Shown: positions 1,171 to 60,179, counted from the stretch's first letter. The stretch: 64,000 nt of DNA from a virus (IMGVR_UViG_3300019360_000001); one strand, 5' to 3'. The notes: generated by a model not told the origin, from the sequence alone. Translations and numbers: made by a program.

Positions 1171-1179
1171 GTTTTCTCC

Positions 1180-1572
1180 TTAAAAGTCTCCCACTGGAGC
1201 TTTATTTTCCTTTTTTGTTGCGTGTGAAGATTCTGTCTGTTTGTTGTCGAACTTCTTAAGAGGCCCAAGAACAGAAACACTACTGCCAGATACATATAAT
1301 TTTTTCCTCTTTGCTCCGCTGGCCTTATCTACCCAACTATCTTGACGGAATGACCCTTGAACATAGATCTTTATATTTCCTTGTCCTTCGCTAAGAGATT
1401 TTCGCAAAGAATCAGTCAAATCCCAAGATTCTACCGAAACAAAAATTCCGTCATCATTGTCTTTAACTGGTGGAATACGAACAGAGAACGAGGAAATACA
1501 ATGCTGTCCAGCATATCTCTCTTCGTAATTATAGAGTCCACCCTCTATGTAAATAAAATTGTTTCTTGCCAT
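1180..1572 (-). CDS. ssb: Single-stranded DNA-binding protein
   Basis: FVSVESW...IYVQGSFRQDSWVDKASGAKRKKLYV; C-terminal tip GDF. Confidence 0.85.
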   Translation of the reverse strand: MARNNFIYIEGGLYNYEERYAGQHCISSFSVRIPPVKDNDDGIFVSVESWDLTDSLRKSLSEGQGNIKIYVQGSFRQDSWVDKASGAKRKKLYVSGSSVSVLGPLKKFDNKQTESSHATKKENKAPVGDF

Positions 1573-1638
1573 GAATTTCTCCTTTAAAAACAGGCTTTTT
1601 ATAATTTTCTATAATACTAATAAATAATTTACAAACAT

Positions 1639-6822: not shown

Positions 6823-6935
6823 ATTATTTGTGTCTTTCGTTTCTGTTACTAAGACGACTATCTAGCTTATGTTTAATCAATACACAAGTTAAATTGCTTA
6901 TAAATGTTATAATGAATATTGCCAAGTAATTCATG

Positions 6936-7970: not shown

Positions 7971-8007
7971 CTAATAGATTTTATCCAACTAAACATTTAA
8001 TGTTCCT

Positions 8008-8832
8008 TTAAAATAAAAGTTCTGTGCTTTCCATTCCGCTTGCCGATTTATGACCCCCGCCATTAAATATTTTAGCTATTTCACTACAGTCAAAATCTTT
8101 GCTTGATCTAAGACTGTATTGCCATTTTCCGTCGCCTCGTTTAAAATAACCTATCGCCAATGGACACTTTTCCTTGACTATCTTATTGTTTAAGAGCCTA
8201 CTTATAGACCAATAAGGACAATTAATAACCGGCACATTCATTCCGGCAAATTTACCAAATGCATTAGAAAGTACAACATTGATAAAATTGGGCATCATTT
8301 GGCATATGTATAGCTCTGTGTACTGAGCAACCATTAGTCCTTTTTCATATAATTCATTAAATGAAGCATTGCTTAGTTTTTCAAAGTCTTCTATTGTGTT
8401 GTTGTACAAACTAGATCCTGCTGCAATTTCTCTAGAAGAGGGTAGTTCCCAGGCCCATCTATCTGCATCATCAATGTATTTAATAAACATTGGCACAGCT
8501 TCTGATGGATTAAAATGTTCCCAAGCTAAAACGGCACCAGACTTATTCATGTCAAATTTAGCGAAGTCAAGCCCTTCTAGTTCTTTTTCAGCCGTAGCAT
8601 GATGATCAAGAATCAATAAACTTTTTGCCACTTCTTTTATTTTTAAACAAAAATCTCTTTTAAATGAAAAATCTAAAATATAAACCTCTTTGTCTATAAA
8701 ACACTGAAGGTCAATATTTTCTCCGTAATTCATTTGCAAGTATCGTGCTGAGTCTTTGAATTTGTGCCAAGCACACCAAGCCGCAGCAGTCCCATCTTTA
8801 CAATTTTTATGCGATATAACCAGTCTATTCAT
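8008..8832 (-). CDS. DHH/DHHA1 phosphoesterase
   Basis: H..C.DG, ILDFS, LDHH, SLRS and GGGHKSASG motifs. Confidence 0.9.
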   Translation of the reverse strand: MNRLVISHKNCKDGTAAAWCAWHKFKDSARYLQMNYGENIDLQCFIDKEVYILDFSFKRDFCLKIKEVAKSLLILDHHATAEKELEGLDFAKFDMNKSGAVLAWEHFNPSEAVPMFIKYIDDADRWAWELPSSREIAAGSSLYNNTIEDFEKLSNASFNELYEKGLMVAQYTELYICQMMPNFINVVLSNAFGKFAGMNVPVINCPYWSISRLLNNKIVKEKCPLAIGYFKRGDGKWQYSLRSSKDFDCSEIAKIFNGGGHKSASGMESTELLF

Positions 8833-22627: not shown

Positions 22628-23696
22628 AATAGTCTTCTAAATTTTTCATAAAGTTATCAATTGAACTCCACTCAAAATCATCTACGTAACTAGGAGCATC
22701 TTTAACATTTTCTAAAATCCATTTTTCATGCTCCATCGTATTTCTAGTTTCTCCATTTATTATAGAAAAACTATCTTTTAGTAACTTTCCCCATTTAAAA
22801 TTTATATTTCTATCTATTTGTTTCACTGGACATTCTATTTTATCAAAATATCTTTTATTATCCTCATTTAGGGGATTACTTCTACATTCTGCTGGATGAT
22901 ATAAATGGATAGAACAAAAATTCTTGTTTTGCCCATCATAAAACCTAAGTCCTTGAGCTAAAAATCTTTCTCTAATAGAGTCGTCTTCGCATCTATATCT
23001 AAAACCTCTAACGTAAATCTCGTCATAGGCACCCATATTAAGTACATTTTCTCTTTTAACAGCCCAAGTCCATAAAGTATTGTTAATTCCGTGAGGAATT
23101 TTAAAATGAGAATATGTATGTAATATTTTATTGCCAATATTGGCCATAGAAATTATTGACTTATTTATTATTTCTGCTTTTGGGTCAAACATACAGGCAC
23201 AAAGTGACGACTTAGAGCTGTCAACTACATAGCCACGATTTATTATATTGCTTGGCTTATTTTTAGTAACTTGACCATTTAAATATTCTAATCTATTTTC
23301 TACAGTGCCAATATCTTTATTTATAATAACCTTGAAATTGCTATCATCTATAAATGGATTCAACATGCCAAAAACAATATTTTCTCCAGGGAAATGATCT
23401 ATGTCTATCATGGCTATTATTTGCCCTTCACACATTCTTAATAATACATTTCTTGGATATGCTGCGTTTATAAACCTACCAATTGGTAAATAGACATATT
23501 TTAGATTTATGTATTGCGCCAAAGTTCTACATAGATCTATTGTGTCGTCTGTTGAACCTCCATCGGCTATAAGAACTTCAAAAGTATGATCTGGAAATAC
23601 CGCCTTATTAAGTGTTAGTCTAGATAATATGGCTGCAACTCTTTCTTTTCTGCCAGGAGCACATGGAACTATAACACTTAAAAGTGGTTTACTCAT
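22611..23696 (-). CDS. Glycosyltransferase family 2
   Basis: LSVIVP, ADGGSTD, RN, DID, YDE...ED and HLYH motifs. Confidence 0.85.
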   Translation of the reverse strand: MSKPLLSVIVPCAPGRKERVAAILSRLTLNKAVFPDHTFEVLIADGGSTDDTIDLCRTLAQYINLKYVYLPIGRFINAAYPRNVLLRMCEGQIIAMIDIDHFPGENIVFGMLNPFIDDSNFKVIINKDIGTVENRLEYLNGQVTKNKPSNIINRGYVVDSSKSSLCACMFDPKAEIINKSIISMANIGNKILHTYSHFKIPHGINNTLWTWAVKRENVLNMGAYDEIYVRGFRYRCEDDSIRERFLAQGLRFYDGQNKNFCSIHLYHPAECRSNPLNEDNKRYFDKIECPVKQIDRNINFKWGKLLKDSFSIINGETRNTMEHEKWILENVKDAPSYVDDFEWSSIDNFMKNLEDYYVSGH

Positions 23697-24301
23697 TAAT
23701 TCCTCAGTATAACTAATGGCCTAATTCTAAATAGTAATTTGGCTTCTATTTTTTCTTTTATTACTGGGCCAAAATTTCTACAATCGTAAGACATTGGCCT
23801 ATTGTCACCCATCATAAAATATTCATTTTCTTCAAGTTTCCAAAATTTACTAGTTTCATTTTCTGGTAATTTAGTTTCATAATTTATTATGTTACTATTA
23901 CTCTCTGGAATTGTATTGACAAATACTCTGCCATTTGATATTAGTACAAAGTCTCCTGGAATACCTATAACTCTTTTTATAAGATATATATAAGACGATA
24001 GTCTGTCATTTCCTGTAAAACAAACTATATCTCCTCTTTCAATTTTCTCAAACTTAAGTTGCACAAGTATTCTGTCACCATTCATTATAGATGGGAACAT
24101 GCTAGGGCCAACTACTTTGGAAATTTTAGGGTCATATATCTTTTTTAAGACCAAAATGGGCAGTATACAAACTAACACTAATAAAAAGAAACTTATTACA
24201 AAAGAAGTAATAGATAAATTCTTTTTTTCTATCATGTAAGGTAAATTTCCCCATTTGGGAACTGAAAATTTCTTTGTGTTTTTGCCTAATTTATTTTTCA
24301 T
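23696..24301 (-). CDS. lepB: Signal peptidase I
   Basis: TM helix, GPSMFP (catalytic Ser), IKRVIGIPGD (catalytic Lys) and GDNR..S.D.R.FGP. Confidence 0.92.
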   Translation of the reverse strand: MKNKLGKNTKKFSVPKWGNLPYMIEKKNLSITSFVISFFLLVLVCILPILVLKKIYDPKISKVVGPSMFPSIMNGDRILVQLKFEKIERGDIVCFTGNDRLSSYIYLIKRVIGIPGDFVLISNGRVFVNTIPESNSNIINYETKLPENETSKFWKLEENEYFMMGDNRPMSYDCRNFGPVIKEKIEAKLLFRIRPLVILRN

Positions 24302-24473
24302 AATATAAATCCTTCATTTTATTTTTACAGTTTTCTTTAAAAGTTACAGTAGTTGTAATAACCCCTGATTTATGGTTTGCTATATATTGTTAGCAGTTAC
24401 TACATAAACAATATTCGAAGTTGTTATATGATACTAAGTATCTCAAATTATCATTATGGCATTTAATGGGCAT
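24291..24473 (-). pseudogene. Small C-terminal-tag family member with an in-frame TAA
   Basis: MPIKCHNDNLRYLVSYNNFEYCLCSNC*QYIANHK...KMKDLYYEK*; the internal stop is at 24390-24392. Confidence 0.6.
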
Positions 24474-24681
24474 AATATATTCCTATCATTGCACATTTAT
24501 GGGAATGTGGATTTGGTGAACGACTTAATAATCCTATAAATTCCTGTTTACATTTGCAGCAAGTTAACATTGATGGAATATTATCAAGAATCTGCATGTT
24601 GGACCATTTAGTTGGCGGCATCAGATAACCTGTAGGTGCTATTCTTAAATAGTCTTCATTAATAGACATATTTTGTATCAA
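24463..24681 (-). CDS. Small Zn-finger protein, C-terminal tag GIYYAH
   Basis: CCKC...HKC; shares the C-terminal motif. Confidence 0.6.
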   Translation of the reverse strand: MIQNMSINEDYLRIAPTGYLMPPTKWSNMQILDNIPSMLTCCKCKQEFIGLLSRSPNPHSHKCAMIGIYYAH

Positions 24682-32604: not shown

Positions 32605-33741
32605 TTATAACAAATTAACAAGTTTTGAGTCATTATTATCTTTATTTATATCTTTACTAGTTAGTTTTACGGCATATTTATTGTTACCTAAGTAACAAAT
32701 TATTTTATTTAATACCATTTTGTCTAAAGTTTTACGAAGATGGCCGAAATTTGGCATTTGCCCAGTTTTTTCACAAGTATTAGCCAATTCTTTAAAAGTC
32801 ATTTCACTTTTAGATAGGGTATTATATATAATTTGCTCAAAAGAAGACATTTGCATTACATTAATATTATTAAATACTATTAAATCATCAAACATTTCAT
32901 TTATTAAGGTTTGCGCACCTTTATCCGTATTTAAATTTTCTACGCCAAAAAACCTTTTAACGAACAAAAATATATCATGTGCCAACCATGCGTTCCTAAA
33001 CTGAGAACTTTCTTTATCTATTATATGTTCTGATTTTATTTCCCATTTGGATTTTAATAGAAGTATTTCATCTGGGCTTAAACTACTATAATTTTCCTTG
33101 CATAAACTTTCTTTAATTATTTGCCAGTTACATTTAGCCGATGAAGGCTCTAATATTTGTCCTATTAAGTCTTCCTTATCGCTACTATTTTTTGCTTTAA
33201 CAACAACAAATCTATCAAGCACAGCGCATATATGCTCTAATTGATTTGGTTTATTTGGGATATTGATTCCATTAGTTGCCGCCAGAACTAGGCCATTAAA
33301 TTGAACTGGTTCTATATTTCTATGTTTTGGCTTTATTATTTCGCCATTACCTATTTGTTTAAGTACATGTATATGCTGTTTAGTTTCAAGAGAAAATTCA
33401 TCAATAAAAATGATTGAGTTATTATAACATTCGAGAGTTTCGTATATACCGATTCCAGTAGAAGCTCCTGCCGAGGATATCCATCTAGCTACTTTTTGCC
33501 CATATTTATTCTCACTGCCTAGACCCAATCCTTCATAAATTGATTTTAACAATTGGGTTTTACCTGATCCTGCACGCCCTAATAATAGCACATGTCGGTT
33601 TCCATCGTGAAACACTCTTCCGATGCGGTTAAATAAGCCAGCCTTATGCTCCATGCGGGCTTTAATCGCCATAATCACCGCAAGCGGCAGACTTTTTTGG
33701 TCGCAAATTTTATTTATTTCGCCAATTAGATTAGACAGCAT
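32605..33741 (-). CDS. AAA+ ATPase with C-terminal winged helix
   Basis: Walker A GRAGSGKT, Walker B IFIDE, sensor ATN, Arg finger LDRF; wHTH-like tail. Confidence 0.8.
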   Translation of the reverse strand: MLSNLIGEINKICDQKSLPLAVIMAIKARMEHKAGLFNRIGRVFHDGNRHVLLLGRAGSGKTQLLKSIYEGLGLGSENKYGQKVARWISSAGASTGIGIYETLECYNNSIIFIDEFSLETKQHIHVLKQIGNGEIIKPKHRNIEPVQFNGLVLAATNGINIPNKPNQLEHICAVLDRFVVVKAKNSSDKEDLIGQILEPSSAKCNWQIIKESLCKENYSSLSPDEILLLKSKWEIKSEHIIDKESSQFRNAWLAHDIFLFVKRFFGVENLNTDKGAQTLINEMFDDLIVFNNINVMQMSSFEQIIYNTLSKSEMTFKELANTCEKTGQMPNFGHLRKTLDKMVLNKIICYLGNNKYAVKLTSKDINKDNNDSKLVNLL

Positions 33742-33979
33742 AATATATACCGCTCATTTTATTAATATAATAATATATGGGCAAAAATTTACGATAACAT
33801 TTCGCACAAAGAAAACAATAAGAAACATCATTTTTACAGTTTATACAAGTTCCATATGTCCATCGCCCAAACATCGCAATAGCTATATGTTGTAAACAAT
33901 CAATACATTTACAACAATACTTGCTATCGGTGTAAATATCTTCTCTAAAAATATCTCTGCAACCAGCACAAGTATTCAT
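33731..33979 (-). CDS. Cys-rich small protein, tag GIYYAV
   Basis: Four CxxC pairs; paralog of 58120..58326. Confidence 0.7.
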   Translation of the reverse strand: MNTCAGCRDIFREDIYTDSKYCCKCIDCLQHIAIAMFGRWTYGTCINCKNDVSYCFLCAKCYRKFLPIYYYINKMSGIYYAV

Positions 33980-34227
33980 AATATATAGTATATACCTTTA
34001 AATTTACAACCATAATGTGTGATAGGCAAATTTTTACCATAACAAGAATTACATAAAATAGATTCATCCATTAGATCGTTGCAATTAAAACAACGATTCT
34101 CTCCCACCTTTAAATTAAACTTTATCAAATGAAGTTTACTTCGCAATAGTAAATTCCAACATTCATCACAATAGTTATCATTGTTAACTGTAATGTTGTG
34201 CCCACAAGAACAATATTTTTTATCCAC
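33976..34227 (-). CDS. Cys-rich small protein, tag GIYYIL
   Basis: CxC plus three CxxC; paralog of 58323..58559. Confidence 0.7.
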   Translation of the reverse strand: MDKKYCSCGHNITVNNDNYCDECWNLLLRSKLHLIKFNLKVGENRCFNCNDLMDESILCNSCYGKNLPITHYGCKFKGIYYIL

Positions 34228-36967: not shown

Positions 36968-37259
36968 AAATATCTACATTTCTATCGTTTAAATCTTTAA
37001 ACCAAGACTCAATAGAATCAAATTTCTCTGTCTTTAATGCTTTTATGTGTTTTGCCATTTCAACTGACTTATCATTAAATAATGAAAATATTGAAGGCGA
37101 AACATATGCAATTCCTAATTTGGCCACAATAAATATATATTTTGTATTATTAAGCAAATCTAAAGCTTTTACAGGATATTGTTTACTTCCCTCTTTAATT
37201 GTGTGCATTAATTTTCTCCTTTGCCAATTTAGAATTAACACTTTTAATGTCAAAATCAT
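36915..37259 (-). CDS. Hypothetical protein
   Basis: ORF in operon. Confidence 0.5.
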   Translation of the reverse strand: MILTLKVLILNWQRRKLMHTIKEGSKQYPVKALDLLNNTKYIFIVAKLGIAYVSPSIFSLFNDKSVEMAKHIKALKTEKFDSIESWFKDLNDRNVDIYVNRKKTVQNGGIKNES

Positions 37260-37506
37260 TCCAAGAATAAATATTTATATTATTTCTGGTTTTGCCTGTG
37301 TTAATCACCCCAACCCCTTTTAAGGTGTTTATACATCTTATTGTCGTTAACCTTTTTATGTTTGTCGCTTGACAAATATCTTTTATTGTAATTTCAGAAG
37401 ATTGATTATAATTTCCGGTCCTAGAAAACAAAAATATCATAATTCTAAGTGTTGATCCGGTAAATTCTAGCTTGCACCATTCCATATTAAATTTTGCAAA
37501 CGTCAT
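37195..37506 (-). CDS. Winged-helix DNA-binding protein (replication-initiator-like)
   Basis: ITIKDICQATNIKRLTTIRCINTLKGVGVI...NIY. ATG 37506 has an AAGGA SD; the track start at TTG 37557 is less likely. Confidence 0.7.
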   Translation of the reverse strand: MTFAKFNMEWCKLEFTGSTLRIMIFLFSRTGNYNQSSEITIKDICQATNIKRLTTIRCINTLKGVGVINTGKTRNNINIYSWNDFDIKSVNSKLAKEKINAHN

Positions 37507-37560
37507 AAAATCCTTAAATTTTTTACATATTTCTGAAAATTTCCAAAGGTTAAACAAGTG

Positions 37561-37644
37561 GTATCAAAAATGATACTAGGAAGGTATCAAAAATGATACT
37601 GCCTAAGTATCATCCATGATACCAAGTAGTATCATCCGTGATAC
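37561..37644. repeat. Four palindromic GTATCA-N4-(T/G)GATAC-type repeats (iterons/operators), candidate origin
   Basis: Copies start at 37561, 37584, 37607 and 37629 (period 23, 23, 22 bp) and are followed by an AT-rich tract. Confidence 0.85.
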
Positions 37645-37910
37645 CCCCTGTTTCCATAAGTCTAATTATAATTAATAGTTACGGGAAAAATCTACATCTA
37701 TAATGTCTGAATATCTATATTAATGCCGGAAGGCCTTTTCCCTTATAAACAAAGGACTTAGGTTTTTGCATCATGCAGTTACCTTGCTTTATTTATTAAA
37801 ATAATAGCTTCTACAGGGCAATCCTCTAAAATCGCTAAATAATCGCACCGTTGGGCGCCTACGGCCACCCGTTGCCTTGTTTTTAGCTGAGTTAACCCAC
37901 ATCATTTCTT

Positions 37911-38192
37911 CTACAGTCTAAAATATAGGTTTTTTAACTTGTTTGGCTTATAATATTTACTACATTCAATACATAGATAGTCTGTACGTTCCCCTCCGTA
38001 GTATGAATGGGTGTCGTTATCACATTTTTGATTAGCACACTTGTAATGTTTTTTTGAATTTTCAACCTTATCCTTATAATTTTGTCTGATTAAAATATAA
38101 CATTCATAACAATATTTGTAATCATTTCTATTCAAAAAATTACCACAAAGACATTTTCTATCTGGCATAATAAATACCACTTGTTGTGTCAC
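37911..38192 (-). CDS. Cys-rich small protein, tag NLYFRL
   Basis: CLC, CYEC, CANQKC, CIEC; probable start MPDRK at 38168. Confidence 0.7.
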   Translation of the reverse strand: MTQQVVFIMPDRKCLCGNFLNRNDYKYCYECYILIRQNYKDKVENSKKHYKCANQKCDNDTHSYYGGERTDYLCIECSKYYKPNKLKNLYFRL

Positions 38193-38391
38193 GACCCATT
38201 ATTATCAAAGATCTATTATTAATCCATCGTAACAAAGAAGGCATATTATATACATAACGTCCATTGATGTATATTTCTTCTTTATATATTTTAGTTATTT
38301 CTCCTGTATATAGAAAAGATCTATGTGTTTTTATGTTTAATTTTATTATATCACCAATTTGTATATCATCAGCACTATAAATTTTTGCCAT
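38158..38391 (-). CDS. Small SH3/KOW-like protein, tag GIYYAR
   Basis: IQIGDII...YTGEITKI; no Cys. Confidence 0.65.
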   Translation of the reverse strand: MAKIYSADDIQIGDIIKLNIKTHRSFLYTGEITKIYKEEIYINGRYVYNMPSLLRWINNRSLIIMGRDTTSGIYYAR

Positions 38392-38395
38392 TAAA

Positions 38396-38638
38396 TTAAA
38401 GCCTGTAATAAATATCTTTTATTTGTTTTTTTATTATATTTTCTATTTCTTTAACAGTTGATTTTTTGTCCATACATAATAAAAGACTGTTTAGTGATTT
38501 ATGCCCACAAACCAAACATAATTTTTTAGAAAAATCGTAATTAATTAACGAAGCAAGGTTATATAAATCTATAAAATAATAATGACAATATGTGCCGTGG
38601 TGCCATTTAGTTTCTTTGACACAATTACATTTACTCAT
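38396..38638 (-). CDS. Cys-rich small protein, tag DIYYRL
   Basis: CNC...CLVC. Confidence 0.7.
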   Translation of the reverse strand: MSKCNCVKETKWHHGTYCHYYFIDLYNLASLINYDFSKKLCLVCGHKSLNSLLLCMDKKSTVKEIENIIKKQIKDIYYRL

Positions 38639-38886
38639 TTAAAGAAATAAATACCTGAAACTTCTTTAATAATTGATTCTTTTATTTTTACTAAAGAAGG
38701 AGCTGTCTCAAAACAAGCGTGACAAATTAATCTAAAATCTTGTTTTCTACAGAAGATACAATTTTTACGTACTCCCATCCAGCCATGATCTGCATATAGC
38801 AAAGGATATATTTCTTTCCAACAGTCTTCGCAATAATAACTTGTTTTGTTTTTATTTTTATTACACGAACATATATTTTTATTCAT
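38635..38886 (-). CDS. Cys-rich small protein, tag GIYFFK
   Basis: CSC, CEDC, CIFC, CHAC. Confidence 0.7.
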   Translation of the reverse strand: MNKNICSCNKNKNKTSYYCEDCWKEIYPLLYADHGWMGVRKNCIFCRKQDFRLICHACFETAPSLVKIKESIIKEVSGIYFFK

Positions 38887-39107
38887 AGAAGATAATAAAG
38901 GTCAACGAGCCTGTACTTATTAGTTAATTTTTTAGCTGGAATTTTTAAAGCATAACATTTGTCGCACAGTACAGCCTTAACAACAATTGAAGTTCTACAA
39001 TTTATACATATTCTCTGTAATGTATGTTCGGCATGTTTTTCTATCATCTTCCAGCAATCTACACAATAGACACAACCACGTTTTTCACATTCTTCACATG
39101 TATTCAT
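38883..39107 (-). CDS. Cys-rich small protein, tag DLYYLL
   Basis: CEEC, CVDC, CINC, CDKC. Confidence 0.7.
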   Translation of the reverse strand: MNTCEECEKRGCVYCVDCWKMIEKHAEHTLQRICINCRTSIVVKAVLCDKCYALKIPAKKLTNKYRLVDLYYLL

Positions 39108-39319
39108 GGTCTGACTAATTGTCTCCTCTTGCCTTTTTGGTCTTCTAGTAGTATTTTATTACCATTCTGCTCTTCTTTATAAAGGAACAATTCTCGTTCT
39201 AATAAACGTCGGATAGTTGTGGTTACGGTAGAGCCATACTTTTTCGAGATGTCTTCTATTTGGTCGATTATCCATTCGGGAATTCTGACGGATATTGTTA
39301 CGATTTTTTCTTTTGTCAT
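39104..39319 (-). CDS. Ribbon-helix-helix DNA-binding protein
   Basis: TISVRIPEWIIDQIEDISKKYGSTVTTTIRRLL. Confidence 0.75.
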   Translation of the reverse strand: MTKEKIVTISVRIPEWIIDQIEDISKKYGSTVTTTIRRLLERELFLYKEEQNGNKILLEDQKGKRRQLVRP

Positions 39320-39335
39320 AAAATTGATCTTTAAT

Positions 39336-39602
39336 TTATAGCCTGAAATATAATCCGTTGTATTGATTGAATATTATAAGTTTCATATTTCTTATTGTTA
39401 ATTTTCTATTATAACACTTTTTACAAAAATAAACATCGACATATGATTTTAAAAACACATGTTCAATCTCAACACGACATAAAATACATGTTTTGTAATC
39501 AATAAATTCCAGGTTTTTATCAATAAAATCTAAAAGTTCATCTATGCAAACGTTGCAATAAATATTTTCGATAGCTATATCTTGGCAAAAACATTTGCTC
39601 AT
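39336..39602 (-). CDS. Cys-rich small protein, tag GLYFRL
   Basis: CFC, CNVC, CILC, CKKC. Confidence 0.7.
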   Translation of the reverse strand: MSKCFCQDIAIENIYCNVCIDELLDFIDKNLEFIDYKTCILCRVEIEHVFLKSYVDVYFCKKCYNRKLTIRNMKLIIFNQYNGLYFRL

Positions 39603-39874
39603 AATAGATAATAAATGTCATTTAACTTTTTTGTTATTTTTGATATAATTTCTTCACTCGTCATTTTTTGAGCAATACATTTTTCGCATAATACTAAGTT
39701 GTCAATTGATTTATATTTTTTGTCGCCACAAACACAACATCCGTTGCTAATTCCCTCAAATGAATAACAAGCTGATTGTATTTCTGTAACGCATATTTTA
39801 CATAAACCCAATCCGTCAATAATTGAACTTCTTTCGCATGGACATGGAAAATCAGATAACATAATAAATTCCAT
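39599..39874 (-). CDS. Cys-rich small protein, tag DIYYLL
   Basis: CPC, CKIC, CCVC, CEKC. Confidence 0.7.
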   Translation of the reverse strand: MEFIMLSDFPCPCERSSIIDGLGLCKICVTEIQSACYSFEGISNGCCVCGDKKYKSIDNLVLCEKCIAQKMTSEEIISKITKKLNDIYYLL

Positions 39875-40105
39875 GCATTTTTAAACTATAAGATTCTAAA
39901 ATTTCATTTGTAGAAAGATTTTTTAGCATACATTTTGCACAAAATATTCACAATATTTCAAATGATCATCTAAAGAAATTTTACAAACTAAGCATTTATT
40001 TTTAATATTACTTTTTAAAATAAAATTGTCTAGAATTGACATACATTTTTTACAATAAATATATTTAAATCTATTGGTATTTACTACGCAAGTACAAAAA
40101 CTCAT
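39852..40105 (-). pseudogene. Frameshifted Cys-rich protein, tag GIYYVI
   Basis: MSFCTC...CKKC...CLVC...YCEYF, then after a 1-nt shift in a T run CAKCMLKNLSTNEILESYSLKMHGIYYVI*. Confidence 0.65.
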
Positions 40106-40182
40106 AATAAATAGTAAATACATTGTTCATGATAATAACTTGAACATTCTTTTTTACAAATAAAGCACATAGTATTTTTCAT
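40102..40182 (-). CDS. 26-aa mini member, tag CIYYLL
   Basis: MKNTMCFICKKECSSYYHEQCIYYLL*, ATGA-coupled on both sides. Confidence 0.55.
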   Translation of the reverse strand: MKNTMCFICKKECSSYYHEQCIYYLL

Positions 40183-40400
40183 AAGATGTAATATACTCCC
40201 TGTGTCTTATTTCTGGCATTTTCTAGTAATTTTGCGGTTTTAATCTCTGATGAATATTGCCAAAAATTATCACAACATGTAATGCACATTTTCTGTATTT
40301 CATTGTTTAATACAAAACTGCAATATTTTATGACGTTTGTATAACAAAAAAAACATTTTCCTTCATCGCTAATATTATGACCAGTATGTCTATTTAGCAT
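40179..40400 (-). CDS. Cys-rich small protein, tag GVYYIL
   Basis: CFFC...CITC. Confidence 0.65.
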   Translation of the reverse strand: MLNRHTGHNISDEGKCFFCYTNVIKYCSFVLNNEIQKMCITCCDNFWQYSSEIKTAKLLENARNKTQGVYYIL

Positions 40401-40647
40401 AATATAACCCGGACATAAAAGTATTTTTTCTTTTTATGATATCTTCAATTGTCCAAGATAGTTTAATACATTTATCTATACATTTTTCACACATATAGTT
40501 ATAAAATTGATTGGCTTCGTGAAGACATAGTGAACATATTGGATCCTTTGGATCTAAAATACTTGTTAGATGTTTCCAACAACCTGTACAAAAAGGATAA
40601 TCCCATGTATAGGGAATGTTAATTTTACAATTGTTGCATTTATTCAT
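40390..40647 (-). CDS. Cys-rich small protein, tag GLYYAK
   Basis: CNNC, CTGC, CSLC, CEKC; ATGA-coupled to the vWA gene. Confidence 0.7.
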   Translation of the reverse strand: MNKCNNCKINIPYTWDYPFCTGCWKHLTSILDPKDPICSLCLHEANQFYNYMCEKCIDKCIKLSWTIEDIIKRKNTFMSGLYYAK

Positions 40648-42401
40648 TTGTTAGAAGTATTACAGATAATAGTAAATTCCCCTCCATTTAGTTTTCCTAA
40701 GTCAGATGACATGTCTCGGAGTTGATCTTTGGTTTGATAATGTCTTCCATGTCCATATCCGTAACTTAGATTAACTGGATCAGCAAAATAGATCGTATAG
40801 CATTTTTTATTAGTTTTATTAAATTCTTCAATCGCCGGAGGCGATATAGATGATAGTCCATCTGTGAACACAATAATAATATCTACTTCGTCTTCATTTA
40901 TTCTATTTATTGCATGCCTAACTATAATTTCAAAAGAAGTTCCATATCCGCCACGAACTTCTCCCTTCATAAACTTTTCCCAGTCTTCTATACCTTTTAC
41001 TTTTTCTGAGAAACAATATTTCCCATGGTAATTTCCCCCTGTAATTTCACATTCATCACAGTTATGAAAGAAATTTGCTATGTCTACCATATAAGGGATA
41101 AAAGCATGCATAGAAGGAGATGTATCAAAATAACAACAAATCTTTTTCTTATTTCCTTTTCTTTCTTCATTAAAATATAATGGGATTTGATCAGGTCCAC
41201 AAATATCTAGTACTATTAATTCAAACCCAGTTCTAGTTAAGTCTTTTGGAATAATATCTATGGTAGTTGATGTTTTAATTTCGGCATAAATAGTATCAAT
41301 GGCACTTTCTATTAACTTTTCTGTTTGCCATTTAGATATAAACTCATTTAACCCTTGATCTTCTGCACTCGCCGGAGTAAAAATATATTTGTCAAATATT
41401 GCATTTGGATTATTATAATTACTAAATCCATCTCCTTTTATTATTTTGGCACCATCAACTTCTTCTTTTATTGTTTTTTTATCGTTAGCTCTTACACCAT
41501 TCATTCCTCCACGAAATAGGACATCGTCTATTTCATCGTCTTTCATTCTTTCAAATGGAGTAGATGTATTTGCATCGTTTGTGTCATGGCTATCATCCTC
41601 ATCTTTTTCTGTTGGTTTATTTTCTTCTTTAGATTGATTTTTCCCATCTTCTGATTCTTGAGAACCAGTATAGTTTGTTTTTTCTTTGCCATCTGATCTA
41701 TACCCATCTTTTATCCACTCATACATTTCTTCTATTTTCTTTTTGTCTTCTGGATTTAGCAACGAAGACATTTTATTATATAGTAATAGCGGATCTGGTA
41801 TGTATGCATTAAATTCACTTGGATTTTTAGCCTCTGCACAAGTCGTATTTACTCGTGTTCTTACATAGTTTCCGTTCTCTGTTCGGGTTACCTTTTCGAC
41901 TTGTGTTAGGTATATTTCATCAAATATTTTTTGCACCCTATTAGGCAACTCATTTCTCTCTCTCATTAAAATAGATGGATTCATTACACAATAAAGCCCT
42001 TTTGTTCTTGATTCTTCTGTTGGAAACAAGAAATTGCCAAGCTTTATCATACCTCTTGGATTACATAAAAACAAAATTTTATTAATTGCGGCATCTAATG
42101 CAAAATTTATTAGTGCCTTATTAGTCGCTCCTCTAATATTCCTGTACATCGCTTTGTGCAACATTTCATGCCGCAAAACTAGTACAAGTAAATTTACAGG
42201 CAAAGACTGTAATATATTTGCAGAAAATAGAATTTTTTCTCGCTTAGAAACTGGATCAAAGATCCAACAAGCCGTTTGGCATCCATCTGGCATTCTATCA
42301 GAATAATCAACAATGGAACTATAAGTAACCCAGTTTAAGCCAGATTTAACTATTACTCTGGTTAGTTTATTTCGTAGTTTTCTTTCATTAGATGTTAACA
42401 T
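40644..42401 (-). CDS. HExxH metallopeptidase-like plus vWA domain protein
   Basis: LRHEMLH...N.A.D..IN, acidic linker, MIDAS DTSPSM, GYGT and VFTDG. Confidence 0.85.
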   Translation of the reverse strand: MLTSNERKLRNKLTRVIVKSGLNWVTYSSIVDYSDRMPDGCQTACWIFDPVSKREKILFSANILQSLPVNLLVLVLRHEMLHKAMYRNIRGATNKALINFALDAAINKILFLCNPRGMIKLGNFLFPTEESRTKGLYCVMNPSILMRERNELPNRVQKIFDEIYLTQVEKVTRTENGNYVRTRVNTTCAEAKNPSEFNAYIPDPLLLYNKMSSLLNPEDKKKIEEMYEWIKDGYRSDGKEKTNYTGSQESEDGKNQSKEENKPTEKDEDDSHDTNDANTSTPFERMKDDEIDDVLFRGGMNGVRANDKKTIKEEVDGAKIIKGDGFSNYNNPNAIFDKYIFTPASAEDQGLNEFISKWQTEKLIESAIDTIYAEIKTSTTIDIIPKDLTRTGFELIVLDICGPDQIPLYFNEERKGNKKKICCYFDTSPSMHAFIPYMVDIANFFHNCDECEITGGNYHGKYCFSEKVKGIEDWEKFMKGEVRGGYGTSFEIIVRHAINRINEDEVDIIIVFTDGLSSISPPAIEEFNKTNKKCYTIYFADPVNLSYGYGHGRHYQTKDQLRDMSSDLGKLNGGEFTIICNTSNK

Positions 42402-42410
42402 GTAAATTCC

Positions 42411-43679
42411 TTAAAAAGATAGTGGGGCCAAATTGGCCTCTTCGTTTTTAGCGTATTCAAATAGCCGCAATTTTGCGGCATATTCTGCTTGGCGGCACAA
42501 ATCAGCACTCTTAATAGCCTTATGCAATTCGACTAAATCCTTTACTTCTTCTTCTTTTTCATCGTTTATTTCATTGATGATGTTACCTAACATATTAACT
42601 CGATCTGCATAGTCAAATCGTTCTTTAATAGGTTTTAGATACTTAGAAACAGATTTAATACGATCACCAACAGATCCTGTATTTACCGAAATACTAATTC
42701 GTGCCATAAGAGAATCTCCGTCTATTAAGAGGTCCTTAAGTGTTTCAAATAATGGCCTAGTTTTATCTGAGTTAAATCCAAGTTTGGATGCAATAGAATA
42801 TTGAATCGCATCCCATGCTCCGCTTTCAAGATATTCTGTATCTTGCATTACATGTTTATAATAAGCTGCCACAGAAACAAGCAGCGGAACAAACTGGTTG
42901 CTAATTTGCCTAAAAGATATTTCTATCTTATTAGATCCGGCAGTCTTATTAAATTCTTTCACGTTAGCTAGCAACGTAGAAAAGAATTTTGCCGTAAAAT
43001 CATTAATATTTGTCATTAATTTTTTATTGTTCCATATTTCATCGTATGTTTCTCTGACCTTATTTACCGTATCAAAAAGTTTTGTATTGTTTTCTGCAAT
43101 GTTTTCGTCCCTTTTCCCCTGATTTAATTCAATCATCTTGGAAATTTCCTCAACCCCAACAATATTACTTTTGTTATGAGTAGAGGGAACAGGAATTACC
43201 GCAAAAAATCTGTCAAGAAGTGCGGCATCAAGTTTATAGGCTCCCTTATACGTTTCTTCGTTCGCAGTTGCGATCACGAATTTATACTTTAAGGGAATTC
43301 CAAAAACTGTTCTCTCCTCAAGAATTTCTAAAACCATATTCCCTGTTTCTCTAGGGGCTCTAGTAATTTCGTCCATCATTATTACATCTGCATTGCACAC
43401 GCTTCTTTCATGTGTTGCATAAGTAATTTTGCCCTTTTTAATGTCTTCTGGATTAGGACATCCTACCATCGAGAGAAGATTTTCCTTGGACATTTCATAT
43501 TTAATGAACCTATAATTCGGATCATTGCCAGAAAGTGCGGCTGACACAAATCTCGCTACCGAACTTTTGCCACATCCGTGTGACCCAAGTAATAGGAAAT
43601 TATTTCCTCTGGCAAGACATGCTATGATAATAGGCTCTAGATTATGCCATCCATAAATATAATTGTTAAGGTGACTCAT
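42411..43679 (-). CDS. MoxR-family AAA+ ATPase
   Basis: GSHGCGKS, MMDEITRA, LEILEER, ATAN, LDAALLDRF and ISFR motifs. Confidence 0.9.
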   Translation of the reverse strand: MSHLNNYIYGWHNLEPIIIACLARGNNFLLLGSHGCGKSSVARFVSAALSGNDPNYRFIKYEMSKENLLSMVGCPNPEDIKKGKITYATHERSVCNADVIMMDEITRAPRETGNMVLEILEERTVFGIPLKYKFVIATANEETYKGAYKLDAALLDRFFAVIPVPSTHNKSNIVGVEEISKMIELNQGKRDENIAENNTKLFDTVNKVRETYDEIWNNKKLMTNINDFTAKFFSTLLANVKEFNKTAGSNKIEISFRQISNQFVPLLVSVAAYYKHVMQDTEYLESGAWDAIQYSIASKLGFNSDKTRPLFETLKDLLIDGDSLMARISISVNTGSVGDRIKSVSKYLKPIKERFDYADRVNMLGNIINEINDEKEEEVKDLVELHKAIKSADLCRQAEYAAKLRLFEYAKNEEANLAPLSF

Positions 43680-44767
43680 GCTTGCTCCTTTTTGGTATTA
43701 TTATTAAAAGTTAACGAATTAATAACATTATCTATTAAATCACCGTCGAATGCGGAAATAGCAATGGGAGACGTTTCTAGAACTGTATACATCATTTGTG
43801 CAATATCATCTGTTGTATTTTCCACTATACTGGCAAATATTTCAGTGGAAGTTGGATCTTTGGAATAGGTTGATATTATCTTCATGTTTGCCGCATGGGT
43901 CAATATCCAGTCCATCGGCATCATATCTAATCCGCTAGAAATATTTCTATTAATAGCAGTGATTTTTAGATGGTATGCTTTATTTATTTTTTCTTTAGTG
44001 TCGGCATATTTGATAGCCAATGTCTTCAAACATTCAGACAAAGTTTCTACTTTCGTAGCATTTCTTTTCCTAGTCCCAAAAAACCTCATCATTCCTTCAA
44101 TTGTCAGTTGAGGAATTATTTTATAGCTAATTTGTTTCCTCAATTTAGAAGAATCAGTTTCAGAAATACCATGAACCTCATAATAAGGGAACATTCTGCC
44201 AGGAATATTCATCCTATTAATGATTTTGGTTTCATATTTTTCTATGCCTTCTATTGGCATAATAATCGTTTCTACGGGATTTGAGAATAGTAAGTTTGTT
44301 GTTTTTGTTGTGTTTTTTGATACGTCTTTGATATTTAATGCAAACTCTTCTCCAGAAATATCAAGCGTATAATCTTGTTTATTGTAAGTATATTTTGAAT
44401 CATTTTTTAAAAATGTAAATAATTCAGTAGTGTCTATGGCTTTGTCTTTATTTTTATATCTAGAAACAATAGAATTAAACTCATTAAGAGGATGTTCTTT
44501 TGACTTTACAGAAATCTCCTCTTCTATTTTTGTCAAATTATCTATAGTCAATATTTGACTATCTTTGACCAAGATGAACAATGGATGGTCTGGAAACTGT
44601 CGTAACCATGTAAACTTTGGAATATCAATATTAACAAAACGGGGAAGACTATCAGGATCTTTGCTTGGTAAGTTGCCCGATAAATCAGAAGATTTTATTT
44701 TTAGTATTTTAAAATCTTTCTCATTCATCAAAACATCGCCACGGACGTTCGACATCGTAAACAGCAT
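43676..44767 (-). CDS. Hypothetical protein, first large gene of the MoxR operon
   Basis: SD AAAGGAG; ATGA-coupled to the ATPase. Confidence 0.7.
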   Translation of the reverse strand: MLFTMSNVRGDVLMNEKDFKILKIKSSDLSGNLPSKDPDSLPRFVNIDIPKFTWLRQFPDHPLFILVKDSQILTIDNLTKIEEEISVKSKEHPLNEFNSIVSRYKNKDKAIDTTELFTFLKNDSKYTYNKQDYTLDISGEEFALNIKDVSKNTTKTTNLLFSNPVETIIMPIEGIEKYETKIINRMNIPGRMFPYYEVHGISETDSSKLRKQISYKIIPQLTIEGMMRFFGTRKRNATKVETLSECLKTLAIKYADTKEKINKAYHLKITAINRNISSGLDMMPMDWILTHAANMKIISTYSKDPTSTEIFASIVENTTDDIAQMMYTVLETSPIAISAFDGDLIDNVINSLTFNNNTKKEQA

Positions 44768-45013
44768 TTAAATCTCCTTTATTAAATTAAACAAAACTCT
44801 TGTACCCACATTTTACACAAACGTAAACATTTTCTCTAGTTCTTTTTGAATAATAACAATGGGCGAAAGAATGTTTACAGTCTGTTGGGTTTAAAATAAC
44901 CCCTTTCTTTTCTCCTGCTTCCCTGTCCTTGCCCCTGTTTTTATTTTTATCTTTGGGCAAAAATTCTCCTTGTTTAAAAAGGTTTGGGATATGGTCTCGG
45001 ACGCCTAACCGGA

Positions 45014-45042
45014 ATTATACCATGGTGCGTCGATTCTGTCAA
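45014..45042 (-). promoter_or_regulatory. Consensus sigma70 promoter
   Basis: TTGACA-17 nt-TATAAT with extended TG. Confidence 0.85.
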
Positions 45043-45281: not shown

Positions 45282-45488
45282 TTATAAGTTATAATAAATA
45301 CCATTATAATTTTTTTTGGATATTGTTCCATTTTCTATTAGCTCTGAAAAAAATTTTTCTGTCCTTTTATAGATATATAGTTTGTTAGCAATATCAACAA
45401 AATGAACTAATCCATTTTTGCAGTTAGTTATAACAAATAGACGTTCACCATATAAATATTTAAAAACAGTTCCAACTGGGTAATTCAT
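45282..45488 (-). CDS. Small SH3-like protein, tag GIYYNL
   Basis: YPVGTVFKY...; shared C-terminal motif. Confidence 0.65.
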   Translation of the reverse strand: MNYPVGTVFKYLYGERLFVITNCKNGLVHFVDIANKLYIYKRTEKFFSELIENGTISKKNYNGIYYNL

Positions 45489-45718
45489 CGGACGAAATAA
45501 AGCCCTACATAAAAGCTGCGAGAAATCATTTCTTTTTCAAAGAAACTTGCATGCTTTCCCAAACAATCAGTGCAAGTATACCATCCTGGTTTGTTTTTAC
45601 AATTTTTACCTGGACATCTTTTTTTATATTGTTTATAAGCACACATTACTTCAAGGCATTTGCCACAATAAACTTGTCCTATTCTTAGCTTTTCTTTAAA
45701 GCACATTGTACATTTCAT
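45485..45718 (-). CDS. Cys-rich small protein, tag GLYFVR
   Basis: CTMC, CGKC, CPGKNC, CTDC. Confidence 0.7.
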   Translation of the reverse strand: MKCTMCFKEKLRIGQVYCGKCLEVMCAYKQYKKRCPGKNCKNKPGWYTCTDCLGKHASFFEKEMISRSFYVGLYFVR

Positions 45719-48056: not shown

Positions 48057-49556
48057 TTACATTTTTTTAGCATAATCTGACAGCAAAAATTCTTTTCCGT
48101 GCAATTTAACAATCATTCTTCCCAATCTTTCACTCCATCTTTCTACAGAGGGCTTAATAACAATTCCTTCTCTATTATGGCAACCATTACCGATTATTGT
48201 TGGGCCATCTGCTAGTTGTTCTACTTGTTCAAATGATATTAATGGGCCACGATAGATTATTGGAACCGAATTAAATTCTAATTTATCGAAAATAAACTTA
48301 GCATCATCATAGTTTAAGTATTTTCCCTTCGTAATATCAAAGATATCAAAAAATGCTACTTTACATAAATTTGGATGACCATAATGGTATTTGTTTCCTG
48401 CTTGAGTTTTACCATATAGCTCGCCAAAAAACAAGAGATTAGGATAATTTGCTAATTTTTCCCCAATATTATTTTCTCTAGCCCACTTAGACCATTCATT
48501 ATTGTCTTCGTTTTCCTTAGCTAGTCTATGAGAACCCACCCATAAATCATTATCCACGTATGAAAATCTAGCGTTGGAATTATGTACCAAAATATCTGGA
48601 CAAAAGAAATTATTAGTTTCGGTTTCTATATCATATTTACTAGATTTTATTTTATATGTAACATCTGTTATGGATATAATTTCTTGTTCTATTGTAATTC
48701 TTTTGTATTCTAACTGTATAGGCGTGAGCGATAAATCATTTCTTATGCCAGATACTTTATCATTAACATTTAAATCTTTTAATTCTTTATATGAATCAAT
48801 ACTAGGACAATAAAATTTATGATTTGGTGTTGCAACTACCTTGGAAAATGAATTTCCCTTCCCCAATCCTCTTCTTTTAGTTTTTATTTCAAGCCATTTA
48901 TTACATTTTCCATTATTAAATGTATTTAAAACCTTAGATGGAATGATGTTTCTATTATTATCTTGTCCTAAAACATATTCTCCTATTTTTATTTTATTAA
49001 TAGGTTTACTTGTTCCATCTGCCATCCTTATTCTTTGATTAGATTTTAAACATCCATGGATTTTTTCTGTAAAAATAACCTCTTCTCCAAGAGTGAATTC
49101 TTTAATATATTTTCTAGCACTTTCAATATCTGTGTACAATGAGAACCATGCTGGACTTTTTCTATTTTTGCCACTCATATTGCAAGGTTCTACCGGATCA
49201 GGAGACTTAACAGCTCCTAGAATTTCGGCAACATTAGTCCCAACTTCTTTATCTTCTAGGCCAAATAATTTGACTGGCATTATAATTCCCATAGAAAATA
49301 TCCCACGTAGCTTTTTGGCCTTGATAGTTCTTTGTCGTTCGCTTGGATTTTCTCTGTTTTGCCAAATAAATGCAAATTCTGGCTTAATTGGCAACATTGC
49401 ATCAACTGGGAAATATATTGCTTTGTCACCTTCTTGAAATTCACCTAGTTTGAATATTACAGGGAATTGATATACATGAGTAATTCCAAGAGTATCAGCT
49501 TCGGGATGTTTGCCCCATTTCCCTACTTTAATTATCTCAACTATTAATGTACTCAT
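48057..49556 (-). CDS. ATP-dependent RNA ligase (DRB0094/Rnl5-like) with intein
   Basis: N-terminal OB domain (HPEADTL...GDKAIYFPVDA...KLRGIFSMG), motif I TEKIHG/SN, FGELYG, FFDI and REGIVIK. Confidence 0.88.
   Translation of the reverse strand: MSTLIVEIIKVGKWGKHPEADTLGITHVYQFPVIFKLGEFQEGDKAIYFPVDAMLPIKPEFAFIWQNRENPSERQRTIKAKKLRGIFSMGIIMPVKLFGLEDKEVGTNVAEILGAVKSPDPVEPCNMSGKNRKSPAWFSLYTDIESARKYIKEFTLGEEVIFTEKIHGCLKSNQRIRMADGTSKPINKIKIGEYVLGQDNNRNIIPSKVLNTFNNGKCNKWLEIKTKRRGLGKGNSFSKVVATPNHKFYCPSIDSYKELKDLNVNDKVSGIRNDLSLTPIQLEYKRITIEQEIISITDVTYKIKSSKYDIETETNNFFCPDILVHNSNARFSYVDNDLWVGSHRLAKENEDNNEWSKWARENNIGEKLANYPNLLFFGELYGKTQAGNKYHYGHPNLCKVAFFDIFDITKGKYLNYDDAKFIFDKLEFNSVPIIYRGPLISFEQVEQLADGPTIIGNGCHNREGIVIKPSVERWSERLGRMIVKLHGKEFLLSDYAKKM
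48579..49052 (-). mobile_element. Mini-intein (158 aa) in RNA ligase motif I
   Basis: KIHG/CLKSNQRI...TPNHKF...KYDIETETNNFF..ILVHN/SNARF. Confidence 0.9.
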
Positions 49557-59366: not shown

Positions 59367-60179
59367 TTAAATATCTATATATTCTAACTCATTCAAACAA
59401 ATAAACTTAGTGCCCTTAATGTTTACTGTTAATGATTTATGCCAATGGCCAAAAATATGTAATTTCGGCCTATGAAATTCAAACATCGCTTGTAATAGTT
59501 GCCCCGTCCTAGTTTTAATAATCTTTTTGCCCAAAATCCCAATTCCATTGTTTACCATGAAGTCTTTTACTTCGTCCGGACAATCATGGGACAGCATAAT
59601 ATCAGGTTTTGCGTTTTTGTAAGATTCAAGTGCCCAATAAGAACTTTCCATTGAAAGTTCTTCTGTCGGCCACCAATCTATTCCTTCTTTTCTAAAGCTT
59701 TTATCAATTGAAAAAGCCCCACGAACAAAGAAAAATTCTACGCCACCCCTTATTAAATGTCCATAATCCCCCATGGCATTTGGACAATCATTATAAAGAT
59801 AATAATTTTCGTGGTTTCCAGCGAAAAACCTATGATTATTTCGACTCAACTTATAATGTTCAAAATGCTCGTATGAAAGTCCATGATCTCCGATTTGAAC
59901 TGTAAAATAACCTTTTTGTTCTGCATCTTGACAGATTTTGACATAATCTTTATATTTCCCGTGAACATCACCAATTATACGCAAAGTCATTTTACATGCC
60001 TCCATTATTCTAAGCATTTTACAATGTGTAATAAATATCGTCCATTTGTGAAATTCTTTCGGCAGCTCTTTTAAGAATGCAAACTCTATCAGAAGCAGAT
60101 GATCCTTTGGGCCAATTATGTACATTACCAAGTTGAAATTGGCCATATTTAATAGGACATGTAATTTCTGCCCATCCAT
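59367..60179 (-). CDS. Calcineurin-like metallophosphoesterase
   Basis: IGDVHG, QIGD, GNHE, SHDCP and FGHWH motifs; true start probably MTLRIIGD near 59990. Confidence 0.9.
   Translation of the reverse strand: MDGQKLHVLLNMANFNLVMYIIGPKDHLLLIEFAFLKELPKEFHKWTIFITHCKMLRIMEACKMTLRIIGDVHGKYKDYVKICQDAEQKGYFTVQIGDHGLSYEHFEHYKLSRNNHRFFAGNHENYYLYNDCPNAMGDYGHLIRGGVEFFFVRGAFSIDKSFRKEGIDWWPTEELSMESSYWALESYKNAKPDIMLSHDCPDEVKDFMVNNGIGILGKKIIKTRTGQLLQAMFEFHRPKLHIFGHWHKSLTVNIKGTKFICLNELEYIDI

Follow-up and report, generated by a model that had tools for sequence, protein, structure and literature searches.

The 64,000-nucleotide stretch IMGVR_UViG_3300019360_000001, referred to here as the window, is DNA of an uncultured phage, and proteins of the window are also found on contigs of 152-154 kb. 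On its minus strand, between positions 45,042 and 37,911, lie genes that belong to two evolutionary layers. The first layer is a conserved module of four genes: a small zinc-ribbon open reading frame (ORF), a protein of about 360 amino acids (aa), a MoxR AAA+ ATPase, and a protein in which a zincin-like domain (HExxH) is joined by a linker to a vWA domain with a MIDAS metal site. The second layer consists of lineage-specific, fast-evolving small proteins whose sole common feature is a free C-terminal hexapeptide, [GDN]-[ILV]-Y-[YF]-x-x-COOH, which we call the tail or tag. The region as a whole is perhaps best explained as a single early transcription unit composed of these two layers, and we hold this explanation tentatively. 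Of the readings considered here, the single most likely one is that the tail family is functionally linked to the MoxR/zincin-vWA machine, and it too should be regarded as tentative.

The GC content of the window is approximately 31%, and all of its plausible genes are on the minus strand. A first-pass annotation of this DNA had described a consensus promoter ahead of a small ORF, a 363-aa unknown protein, a MoxR ATPase and an HExxH+vWA protein, the last of these coupled through an ATGA overlap to a run of 11 tag-bearing ORFs that is interrupted by a ribbon-helix-helix (RHH) gene and includes one frameshifted member. Each of these elements was recovered on the minus strand at its expected place, as were two further tagged genes directly ahead of a second AAA+ ATPase. 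The overlap between the vWA stop codon and the first mini-gene start (4 nt) is present as described, though it is generic in this genome. The 11 ORFs ending in [GDN]-[ILV]-Y-[YF]-x-x-stop follow the vWA gene without gaps down to position 37911, with the RHH gene among them. The description of the members as divergent apart from cysteine spacing and tail suits most of them, but does not suit the gene at 38158-38391, whose product is free of cysteines and which is no paralogue of the others.

The promoter is a perfect sigma-70-type match (TTGACA-N17-TATAAT), located within a 91-nt intergenic gap. Among 100 shuffled versions of the window, 16 contained at least one perfect match of this kind. At the equivalent position, a complete relative of this phage that we designate G002 carries an 11/12 match, TTGATA-N17-TATAAT. 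Between the promoter and the end of the array there are only two terminator-like sites on the minus strand, both weak (37845-37858, and 42885-42868 within the MoxR gene), and the array is probably read through from the module promoter. A separate 11/12 sigma-70-like match at 39373-39401 lies inside the mini-gene 39336-39602, 54 nt upstream of the RHH gene, and could either drive the distal half of the array or be a chance occurrence in AT-rich DNA.

The tail is selected at the peptide level. Within the window, ORF ends with the tag motif number 24 on the minus strand and 1 on the plus strand, the motif stands exactly two residues before the stop codon in 22 of its 26 occurrences (ORFs of at least 60 aa), and tyrosine occupies position -4 in 32 small ORFs where 4.8 would be expected. 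Within the tail, differing synonymous codons are used for Gly, Ile, Leu, Val, Tyr and Phe, and the DNA 3' of the stop codon is not conserved. A DNA pattern written for the tag is enriched at the in-frame tag position only, which accounts for 17 of its 28 matches. Synonymous codon variation and this in-frame enrichment led us to reject a DNA-level signal. Some encouragement for a promoter, recombination site or translational coupling element, with the peptide as a by-product, might be drawn from the commonness of TAT-TAT among the tail codons and from the many tagged genes that overlap the next start codon. However, some tagged genes are separated from the next gene by more than 300 nt, and the peptide core is kept in a sibling strain, such that we give this explanation almost no credence.

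The bodies that precede the tail are changing rapidly. Most of the tagged proteins are double zinc ribbons, and some have bodies unrelated to these. Across the 15 members of the double zinc-ribbon family, mean column identity is 25% and only three cysteines and one tyrosine are invariant. Contigs of the sibling strain, with 95-99% DNA identity to the window, served as reference for ratios of non-synonymous to synonymous polymorphism (pN/pS). Tagged genes have a ratio of 0.93, compared to 0.28 in the remaining small genes and 0.17 in the large ones, with Fisher p values for the tagged genes of 1.5e-3 against other small genes and 9e-7 against large genes. At non-synonymous sites, the rate of evolution of the tagged bodies exceeds that of the other genes approximately 6- to 12-fold. 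Only 2 of the 83 amino-acid changes in the sibling comparison fall at cysteine or tag-core positions, where 8.5 are expected (p=0.007), and therefore the tail core is held while the bodies diversify. The last two tail residues vary freely.

An exposed hydrophobic or aromatic C-terminus might also serve as a degron, by which a host AAA+ protease (Lon-, FtsH- or Clp-type) would keep early proteins short-lived and so time their action. C-terminal instability signals on phage early regulators are well established, for example in the case of lambda CII and FtsH. The tail described here is free, hydrophobic or aromatic, and at a fixed distance from the carboxyl end, and the genes that carry it are in an early-type region behind a host-type promoter. 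We nevertheless consider a degron improbable, given that the last two residues vary freely, unlike those of a classical ssrA-type signal, that a related motif in the lineage L018/L021 can be internal, and that the co-occurrence of tags with the module would be left unexplained.

Another proposal is that the tail has no dedicated reader and acts instead as a terminal beta-strand for folding, self-association or co-assembly of the tagged proteins. Its aliphatic-aromatic-aromatic alternation is strand-like, and the tagged proteins of a distant phage discussed below (G004) also have a common N-terminal K-Y-L-like strand. In an AlphaFold (AF2) model of one member, however, the predicted local distance difference test score (pLDDT) is about 80 for the body and 58 for the last eight residues, which form an unpaired coil, and the tail is borne by at least three unrelated kinds of body. 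We judge a purely structural strand to be quite improbable.

We attempted to place the mini-proteins among known families. For the one mini-protein whose fold was searched there was no significant PDB match, and the ESM Atlas gave nothing for a mini-protein. A word-indexed search and an exhaustive hidden Markov model (HMM) search of 1.84 billion representatives yielded full-length tagged matches only to proteins identical or near-identical to window ORFs, which we take to come from this phage and its sibling of roughly 97-99% identity; the remaining matches were generic multi-zinc-ribbon proteins. Three known tail types were also set aside: the clamp-binding, PDZ/outer-membrane-protein beta-signal-like and HbYX-type readings do not fit a peptide that lacks their defining glutamine or terminal aromatic, whose tyrosines are not penultimate, and which is carried by presumably cytoplasmic zinc-ribbon proteins.

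The module to which this family would be tied is a very divergent representative of the phage MoxR/metallopeptidase-vWA pair already predicted for jumbo phages. Its four genes are tightly packed downstream of the promoter. The MoxR protein exceeds the cut-offs of three Pfam models (AAA_5, 51.5 bits against 22; AAA_3, 36.9 against 27; bpMoxR, 33.9 against 27), and its Walker A (GxxGxGKS, residues 32-39) and Walker B (D103-E104) motifs are invariant across 5 lineages. Its best PDB sequence match is 2r44 (E 6e-4), which we take to be a MoxR-family ATPase. The vWA gene begins 9 nt past the MoxR stop, and the order MoxR-vWA is kept in G002, in the related lineages L018/L021, L019 and L027, and in the distant phages G004 and phiYS40. 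The 363-aa protein has no family match in Pfam, PHROG or NCBIfam, and the ESM Atlas again gave nothing; its identity is 27% in G002 and 23-24% in L018/L021 (full length), and L019 has a partial match only.

The zincin-like domain of the vWA protein retains H78, E79 and H82 in all 20 homologues. It scores 22.0 bits against Pfam DUF2201_N, just below the cut-off of 23.2, and 10 of the 20 homologues match that model at E<=0.01. Neither the Pfam vWA models nor those for DUF2201 match the window protein or its C-terminal part. We call this C-terminal domain a vWA domain because its MIDAS residues (D426-x-S428-x-S430, T513 and D514) are invariant among the 20 homologues, and because the best Foldseek PDB matches of an AlphaFold (AF2) model (pLDDT 73.7) are all vWA/MIDAS domains, namely integrin I domains, ITIH1, Rea1-MIDAS and NorD of the NorQD complex (probability 0.9-1.0, target template modelling score about 0.45-0.5, E only about 3e-3 to 2e-2). 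The MIDAS residues are also present in G004. In NCBIfam the protein has no HExxH-system match, and its fused zincin-like domain fits no model.

Comparison with close relatives helps to separate the two layers. G002, which is the nearest of the complete relatives (168,570 bp, with terminal repeats), is syntenic with the window over about 50 kb and holds the same four-gene module, with a MoxR protein 57% identical, a vWA protein 52% identical, and all catalytic and MIDAS residues intact. The module is likewise conserved in L018/L021, L019 and L027. In L018/L021, whose vWA protein has about 41% identity, the motif L-S-x-G-G-[IV]-F-[FY] is present in several small proteins rich in cysteine. It is mostly placed 4-12 residues before the C-terminus, or is internal, and every time an acidic residue is found within the next four positions. 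In a comparison of L018 with L021, the genes with this motif again evolve fastest. A conserved orthologue has the ending KGIYYRR in the window, GGIFFEHKS in L018 and a degenerate form in G002. These observations suggest that the tail may be older than the array.

More distant phages provide evidence for a tie at the level of the genome. IMG/VR was scanned at the DNA level, with the motif as the sole criterion, for runs of three tag-ends. The pattern had four matches in the window and no match in any of 100 shuffles, and of the 54 stretches that it returned, 53 were chance matches. The matches listed by a second, looser scan were all due to chance and carry no weight in either direction. The other stretch of the first scan was G004 (IMGVR_UViG_3300037851_000542; 259,994 bp, 95% complete), which has only seven distant genes in common with the window. 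Approximately 39 very divergent small ORFs of G004, 31 of them consecutive, end in [ILV]-[FYW]-[YH]-[LF]-[IV]-stop. The register of these tails from the C-terminus is the same as that of the window tail, their codons vary, and the bodies are almost unalignable. G004 also encodes a MoxR ATPase followed directly by an HExxH + DxSxS vWA protein, which matches the window-family profile at 1.6e-11 and DUF2201 at 20.9 bits (E 4e-4), below the cut-off of 26.4.

The architecture is repeated in the Thermus phage phiYS40 (NC_008584), in which YS40_108 is an AAA_5 ATPase and the next gene, YS40_107, encodes HExxH, DxSxS and a DUF2201 vWA-like match that is above the cut-off (29.8 bits). Of the 63 genes in the 80-125 kb region around this pair, 32 have an x-F ending, in most cases E-[VI]-F, compared to 1 of 59 in the 1-50 kb region, and these x-F proteins are very divergent from each other. 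Apart from this repetition in phiYS40, all three tag-bearing lineages hold the rare module, which played no part in the discovery of one of them. We regard the association of tags with the module at the genome level as suggestive.

The module is rare. It was found in none of the 24 chance-hit viral records and none of the 16 RecA-related viral records, and tags are absent from four large RecA-level relatives that lack the module. Searches by tblastn with the vWA protein of the window or of G004, or with the MoxR protein of the window, detected nothing among 50,697 GenBank phages, the phiYS40 module being too divergent for this search to find. The module has no relatives among 185,579 GTDB species genomes. 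Pattern scans revealed this vWA family in only 3 IMG/VR contigs, and IMG/VR scans with vWA and MoxR profiles returned the sibling, G002 and G004 only.

The first-pass annotation had suggested that the array may be a library of adaptors or clients of the MoxR/vWA pair, and had looked to co-occurrence and synteny in related phages for its support. This suggestion is supported in part: the association across genomes is suggestive, but the link at the level of the locus fails under the refuting condition that the annotation itself had set, and several observations weigh against a functional tie. G002 keeps the module without any tagged ORF, and has no other C-terminal enrichment at any of the last eight positions. 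The MoxR/vWA pair of G004 is at least 33.7 kb from the nearest tagged gene, and in a 636-kb uncultured phage (LR756504) that encodes an HExxH/DxSxS protein, the flanking 20 kb in each direction contain no uniform tails. The small genes that fill the slot from the vWA gene to the next backbone gene differ among the window, G002, L018/L021, L019 and L027. In L018/L021, the vWA gene is followed by three untagged genes before the first motif gene is reached, and the distance from motif to C-terminus is not fixed. Only 11 of the approximately 25 tags in the window are behind the module, the others being at ten further loci over 36 kb, and 4-nt overlaps like that at the start of the array occur at 24 of 116 gene junctions (21%). 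The co-occurrence counts are low (both present, 3; module alone, 1; neither present, 4-5) and uncorrected for phylogeny, and co-location could merely reflect the membership of both layers in the early region. Adjacency and ATGA coupling of the array to the vWA gene are no evidence of function in themselves, and the array is one cluster within a genome-wide family of fast-evolving, tail-tagged mini-proteins.

A rival explanation is that the two layers are neighbours only, with the tail read by some other hub (a host replication clamp, RNA polymerase, a chaperone, or another phage protein) and the array position being a turnover hot spot for small early genes. The tagless module of G002, the differently filled slot in the window, G002, L018, L019 and L027, the scatter of tags over 11 loci, the unlinked tags of G004 and the generic ATGA overlaps all agree with this explanation. 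Furthermore, a host hub would account for the lineage-specific presence or absence of tags, and a metallophosphoesterase gene (59367-60179) is common to the window and the L021 lineage and is absent from G002. However, the sole independently found tag-array phage holds the same rare module, phiYS40 repeats the arrangement, and no alternative reader was identified. We consider it somewhat unlikely that the layers are neighbours only. A functional tie seems the better choice because the rare module co-occurs with tags in three or four lineages and because two published precedents exist, and it is weakened by G002, by the unlinked arrangement of G004 and by the small numbers.

Several known systems are informative in this regard. 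A phage MoxR and metallopeptidase-vWA pair has been described with a proposed role in virion assembly (Iyer, Anantharaman, Krishnan, Burroughs, Aravind 2021, PMC7824862). The window has the same two-gene core and domain order in a large phage, with MoxR followed by a putative HExxH peptidase fused to vWA. However, no tagged small proteins are mentioned in that work, and the pair in the window is in an early-type region with a host-type promoter and two extra conserved genes. A closer parallel for the tail comes from bacterial vWA-MoxR ternary systems coupled to a zincin and to a small, rapidly diverging protein whose conserved portion is a C-terminal FxSxx-COOH-type peptide, said to be released by the peptidase (Kaur, Burroughs, Iyer, Aravind 2020, PMC7159879, which cites Haft and Basu 2011). 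Like those systems, the window combines a putative zincin, a vWA protein, a MoxR ATPase and small fast-diverging proteins, in which nothing is conserved but a short motif two free residues ahead of the carboxyl end. In contrast to them, its motif is Y-[YF] rather than F-x-S, its putative zincin is fused to the vWA protein, its client genes number dozens rather than one, its setting is a phage rather than an actinobacterium, and cleavage is only conjectural here. Radical-SAM/SPASM matches were absent from the approximately 40 window ORFs scanned with Pfam, a set that did not include every ORF or anything outside the window.

The second precedent is structural. In NorQD structures (2026), the hydrophobic extreme C-terminus of the vWA partner docks on the MoxR ring, deletion of the last two residues of NorD abolishes co-purification, and the MIDAS, by taking a ligand from the target protein, is the proposed point of contact with it (PMC13036017). 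As in NorQ/NorD and CbbQ/CbbO (PMC13036017, PMC9976466), the window has an AAA_5 MoxR ATPase and a MIDAS-bearing vWA partner. However, the docking tail in those systems belongs to the vWA protein itself, and they have one enzyme client, no peptidase domain and no client library.

The Thermus phages phiYS40, TMA and YS40_Isch resemble the window in having MoxR, then HExxH + DUF2201-vWA, flanked by divergent proteins with one common ending, but their E-[VI]-F tail is at the very end, and the proteins are 140-200 aa in length without zinc ribbons. A single hub that reads the same short C-terminal peptide on dissimilar proteins is also familiar from the T4 gp45 clamp-binding tails and the T7 acidic tails, which belong to phage replication and transcription proteins. 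Those tails, however, are on few conserved enzymes and have other motif chemistry, whereas the window has dozens of fast-evolving mini-proteins and no clamp gene was identified.

NorQD docking and FxSxx-COOH release offer two concrete ways in which a machine of this type could read a tail at a fixed distance from the carboxyl end. We propose that the tail would be a docking or recognition handle, with the MoxR/zincin-vWA machine as its likeliest reader. The tail might dock in the manner of the hydrophobic C-terminus of NorD, which binds the NorQ ring, or its carboxylate might bind the MIDAS metal. Alternatively, the HExxH domain might clip it, as has been proposed for small proteins of the FxSxx-COOH type that accompany vWA-MoxR systems in bacteria. 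On either route, the variable bodies would be exchangeable adaptors or clients. Because G002 keeps the module without tags, the module would also have a core role that is independent of tags. The coordinates of the features on which these arguments draw are collected below.

Table 1. Features of the window and of related phages. Positions are those of the window unless a phage is named; for each tagged array member, the lower coordinate marks the tail end.
Feature	Coordinates	Strand	Remarks
Sigma-70-type promoter, TG-extended -10	45014..45042	-	sole perfect match within the 64-kb window
57-aa zinc-ribbon ORF, module gene 1	44787..44960	-	TTG start after Shine-Dalgarno sequence AAGGAG; conserved in G002, L018, L021
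363-aa protein of unknown fold	43676..44767	-	conserved third partner of module
MoxR-type AAA+ ATPase, 422 aa	42411..43679	-	Pfam AAA_5; 4-nt overlap with upstream gene
Zincin-like (HExxH) N-domain, disordered acidic linker, vWA with MIDAS; 585 aa	40644..42401	-	
HExxH of vWA protein	42156-42170	-	H78-E79-x-x-H82
MIDAS of vWA protein, D426/S428/S430	41112-41126	-	plus T513/D514
Tagged double zinc-ribbon mini-protein	40390..40647	-	GLYYAK; ATGA-coupled to vWA gene
Tagged mini-protein	40179..40400	-	GVYYIL; GIYYLL in sibling strain
26-aa ORF, one CxxC	40102..40182	-	CIYYLL; probably a truncated array member
Frameshifted tagged member	39852..40123	-	GIYYVI; 1-nt shift parts body (39923-40123) from last CxxC and tail, in other frame (39852-39947)
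Tagged zinc-ribbon mini-protein	39599..39874	-	DIYYLL
Tagged zinc-ribbon mini-protein	39336..39602	-	GLYFRL
RHH/CopG-like protein, 71 aa, within array	39104..39319	-	PHROG 876 (E 7e-5), PHROG 7325 CopG-like (E 1e-3); no Pfam RHH match
Tagged zinc-ribbon mini-protein	38883..39107	-	DLYYLL
Tagged zinc-ribbon mini-protein	38635..38886	-	GIYFFK
Tagged mini-protein	38396..38638	-	DIYYRL; two Cys knuckles degenerate
Tagged mini-protein without cysteines	38158..38391	-	GIYYAR; unrelated body
Last tagged mini-protein	37911..38192	-	NLYFRL
Weak terminator-like hairpin, 3' of array	37845..37858	-	
Two more tagged genes, just upstream of promoter	45282..45718	-	GIYYNL and GLYFVR
Two tagged zinc-ribbon genes, directly ahead of second ATPase	33731..34227	-	
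Second P-loop/AAA+ ATPase, 378 aa	32605..33741	-	weak Pfam, NCBIfam, PADLOC and PDB matches only
Tagged ORFs of G004	224-8383; 29.7-36.7 kb; 246-258 kb		
L-S-x-G-G-[IV]-F-[FY] motif genes	L018 7582-10792; L021 13044-17078		

Some members of the tagged family have unusual characteristics. The gene at 38396-38638 has lost the cysteines of two zinc knuckles, which are kept in a database variant copy (P0008), and this member may be decaying. Remnants of tagged ORFs (24291-24389 and 24463-24681) are located just upstream of a phage-encoded signal peptidase I gene (23696-24301; Peptidase_S26, E 3e-30). The second ATPase is kept in G002, there without tagged genes ahead of it. Attempts to assign this protein to a subfamily with Pfam, NCBIfam, PADLOC and PDB gave matches too weak for any subfamily, and PADLOC found nothing relevant.

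Additional elements of the window merit mention. The metallophosphoesterase is calcineurin-like, is encoded between tagged genes, and is 52% identical to its counterpart in the tag-bearing L021 lineage; a metallophosphoesterase-like ORF is also present in G004 (243866-244447). Beyond the array, four perfect 16-bp palindromes (GTATCA-N4-TGATAC) are spaced by 22-23 bp at 37561-37644, a count reached by no shuffle. They are directly upstream of a winged-helix-like ORF (37195-37557) that is missing from G002, and they are a candidate operator or iteron/origin. A DnaE-type Pol III alpha gene (1639-6822) bears an intein with a LAGLIDADG domain, and an RNA ligase gene (48057-49556) bears a Hint/intein insert.

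No substrate is known for the MoxR/peptidase-vWA pairs of large phages, and there is little explanation for the numerous small early genes that evolve fast in such phages. Even if the proposed link fails, the current findings would still define an addressing tail that operates at the peptide level, is carried by proteins in rapid diversification and has a bounded distribution. If the tail does connect the two, then clients could be named for a widespread orphan phage machine, and the common ending of otherwise unrelated mini-proteins would be explained. The six-residue peptide would also be a simple handle for pull-downs and for protein tagging in vivo. A broader possibility, which we advance with more reserve than the functional tie itself, is that small proteins which evolve fast and can replace one another form families across whole phage genomes and serve the MoxR/zincin-vWA machines of these phages. 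They would plug into the machine by a C-terminal tail that is particular to each lineage (GIYYxx in the window, hydrophobic-aromatic-Y-[LF]-[IV] in the case of G004, and E-V-F in that of phiYS40). Such families would constitute a virus-encoded library of adaptors or clients for an AAA+ remodeller/protease, deployed in early infection and probably directed against variable host targets.

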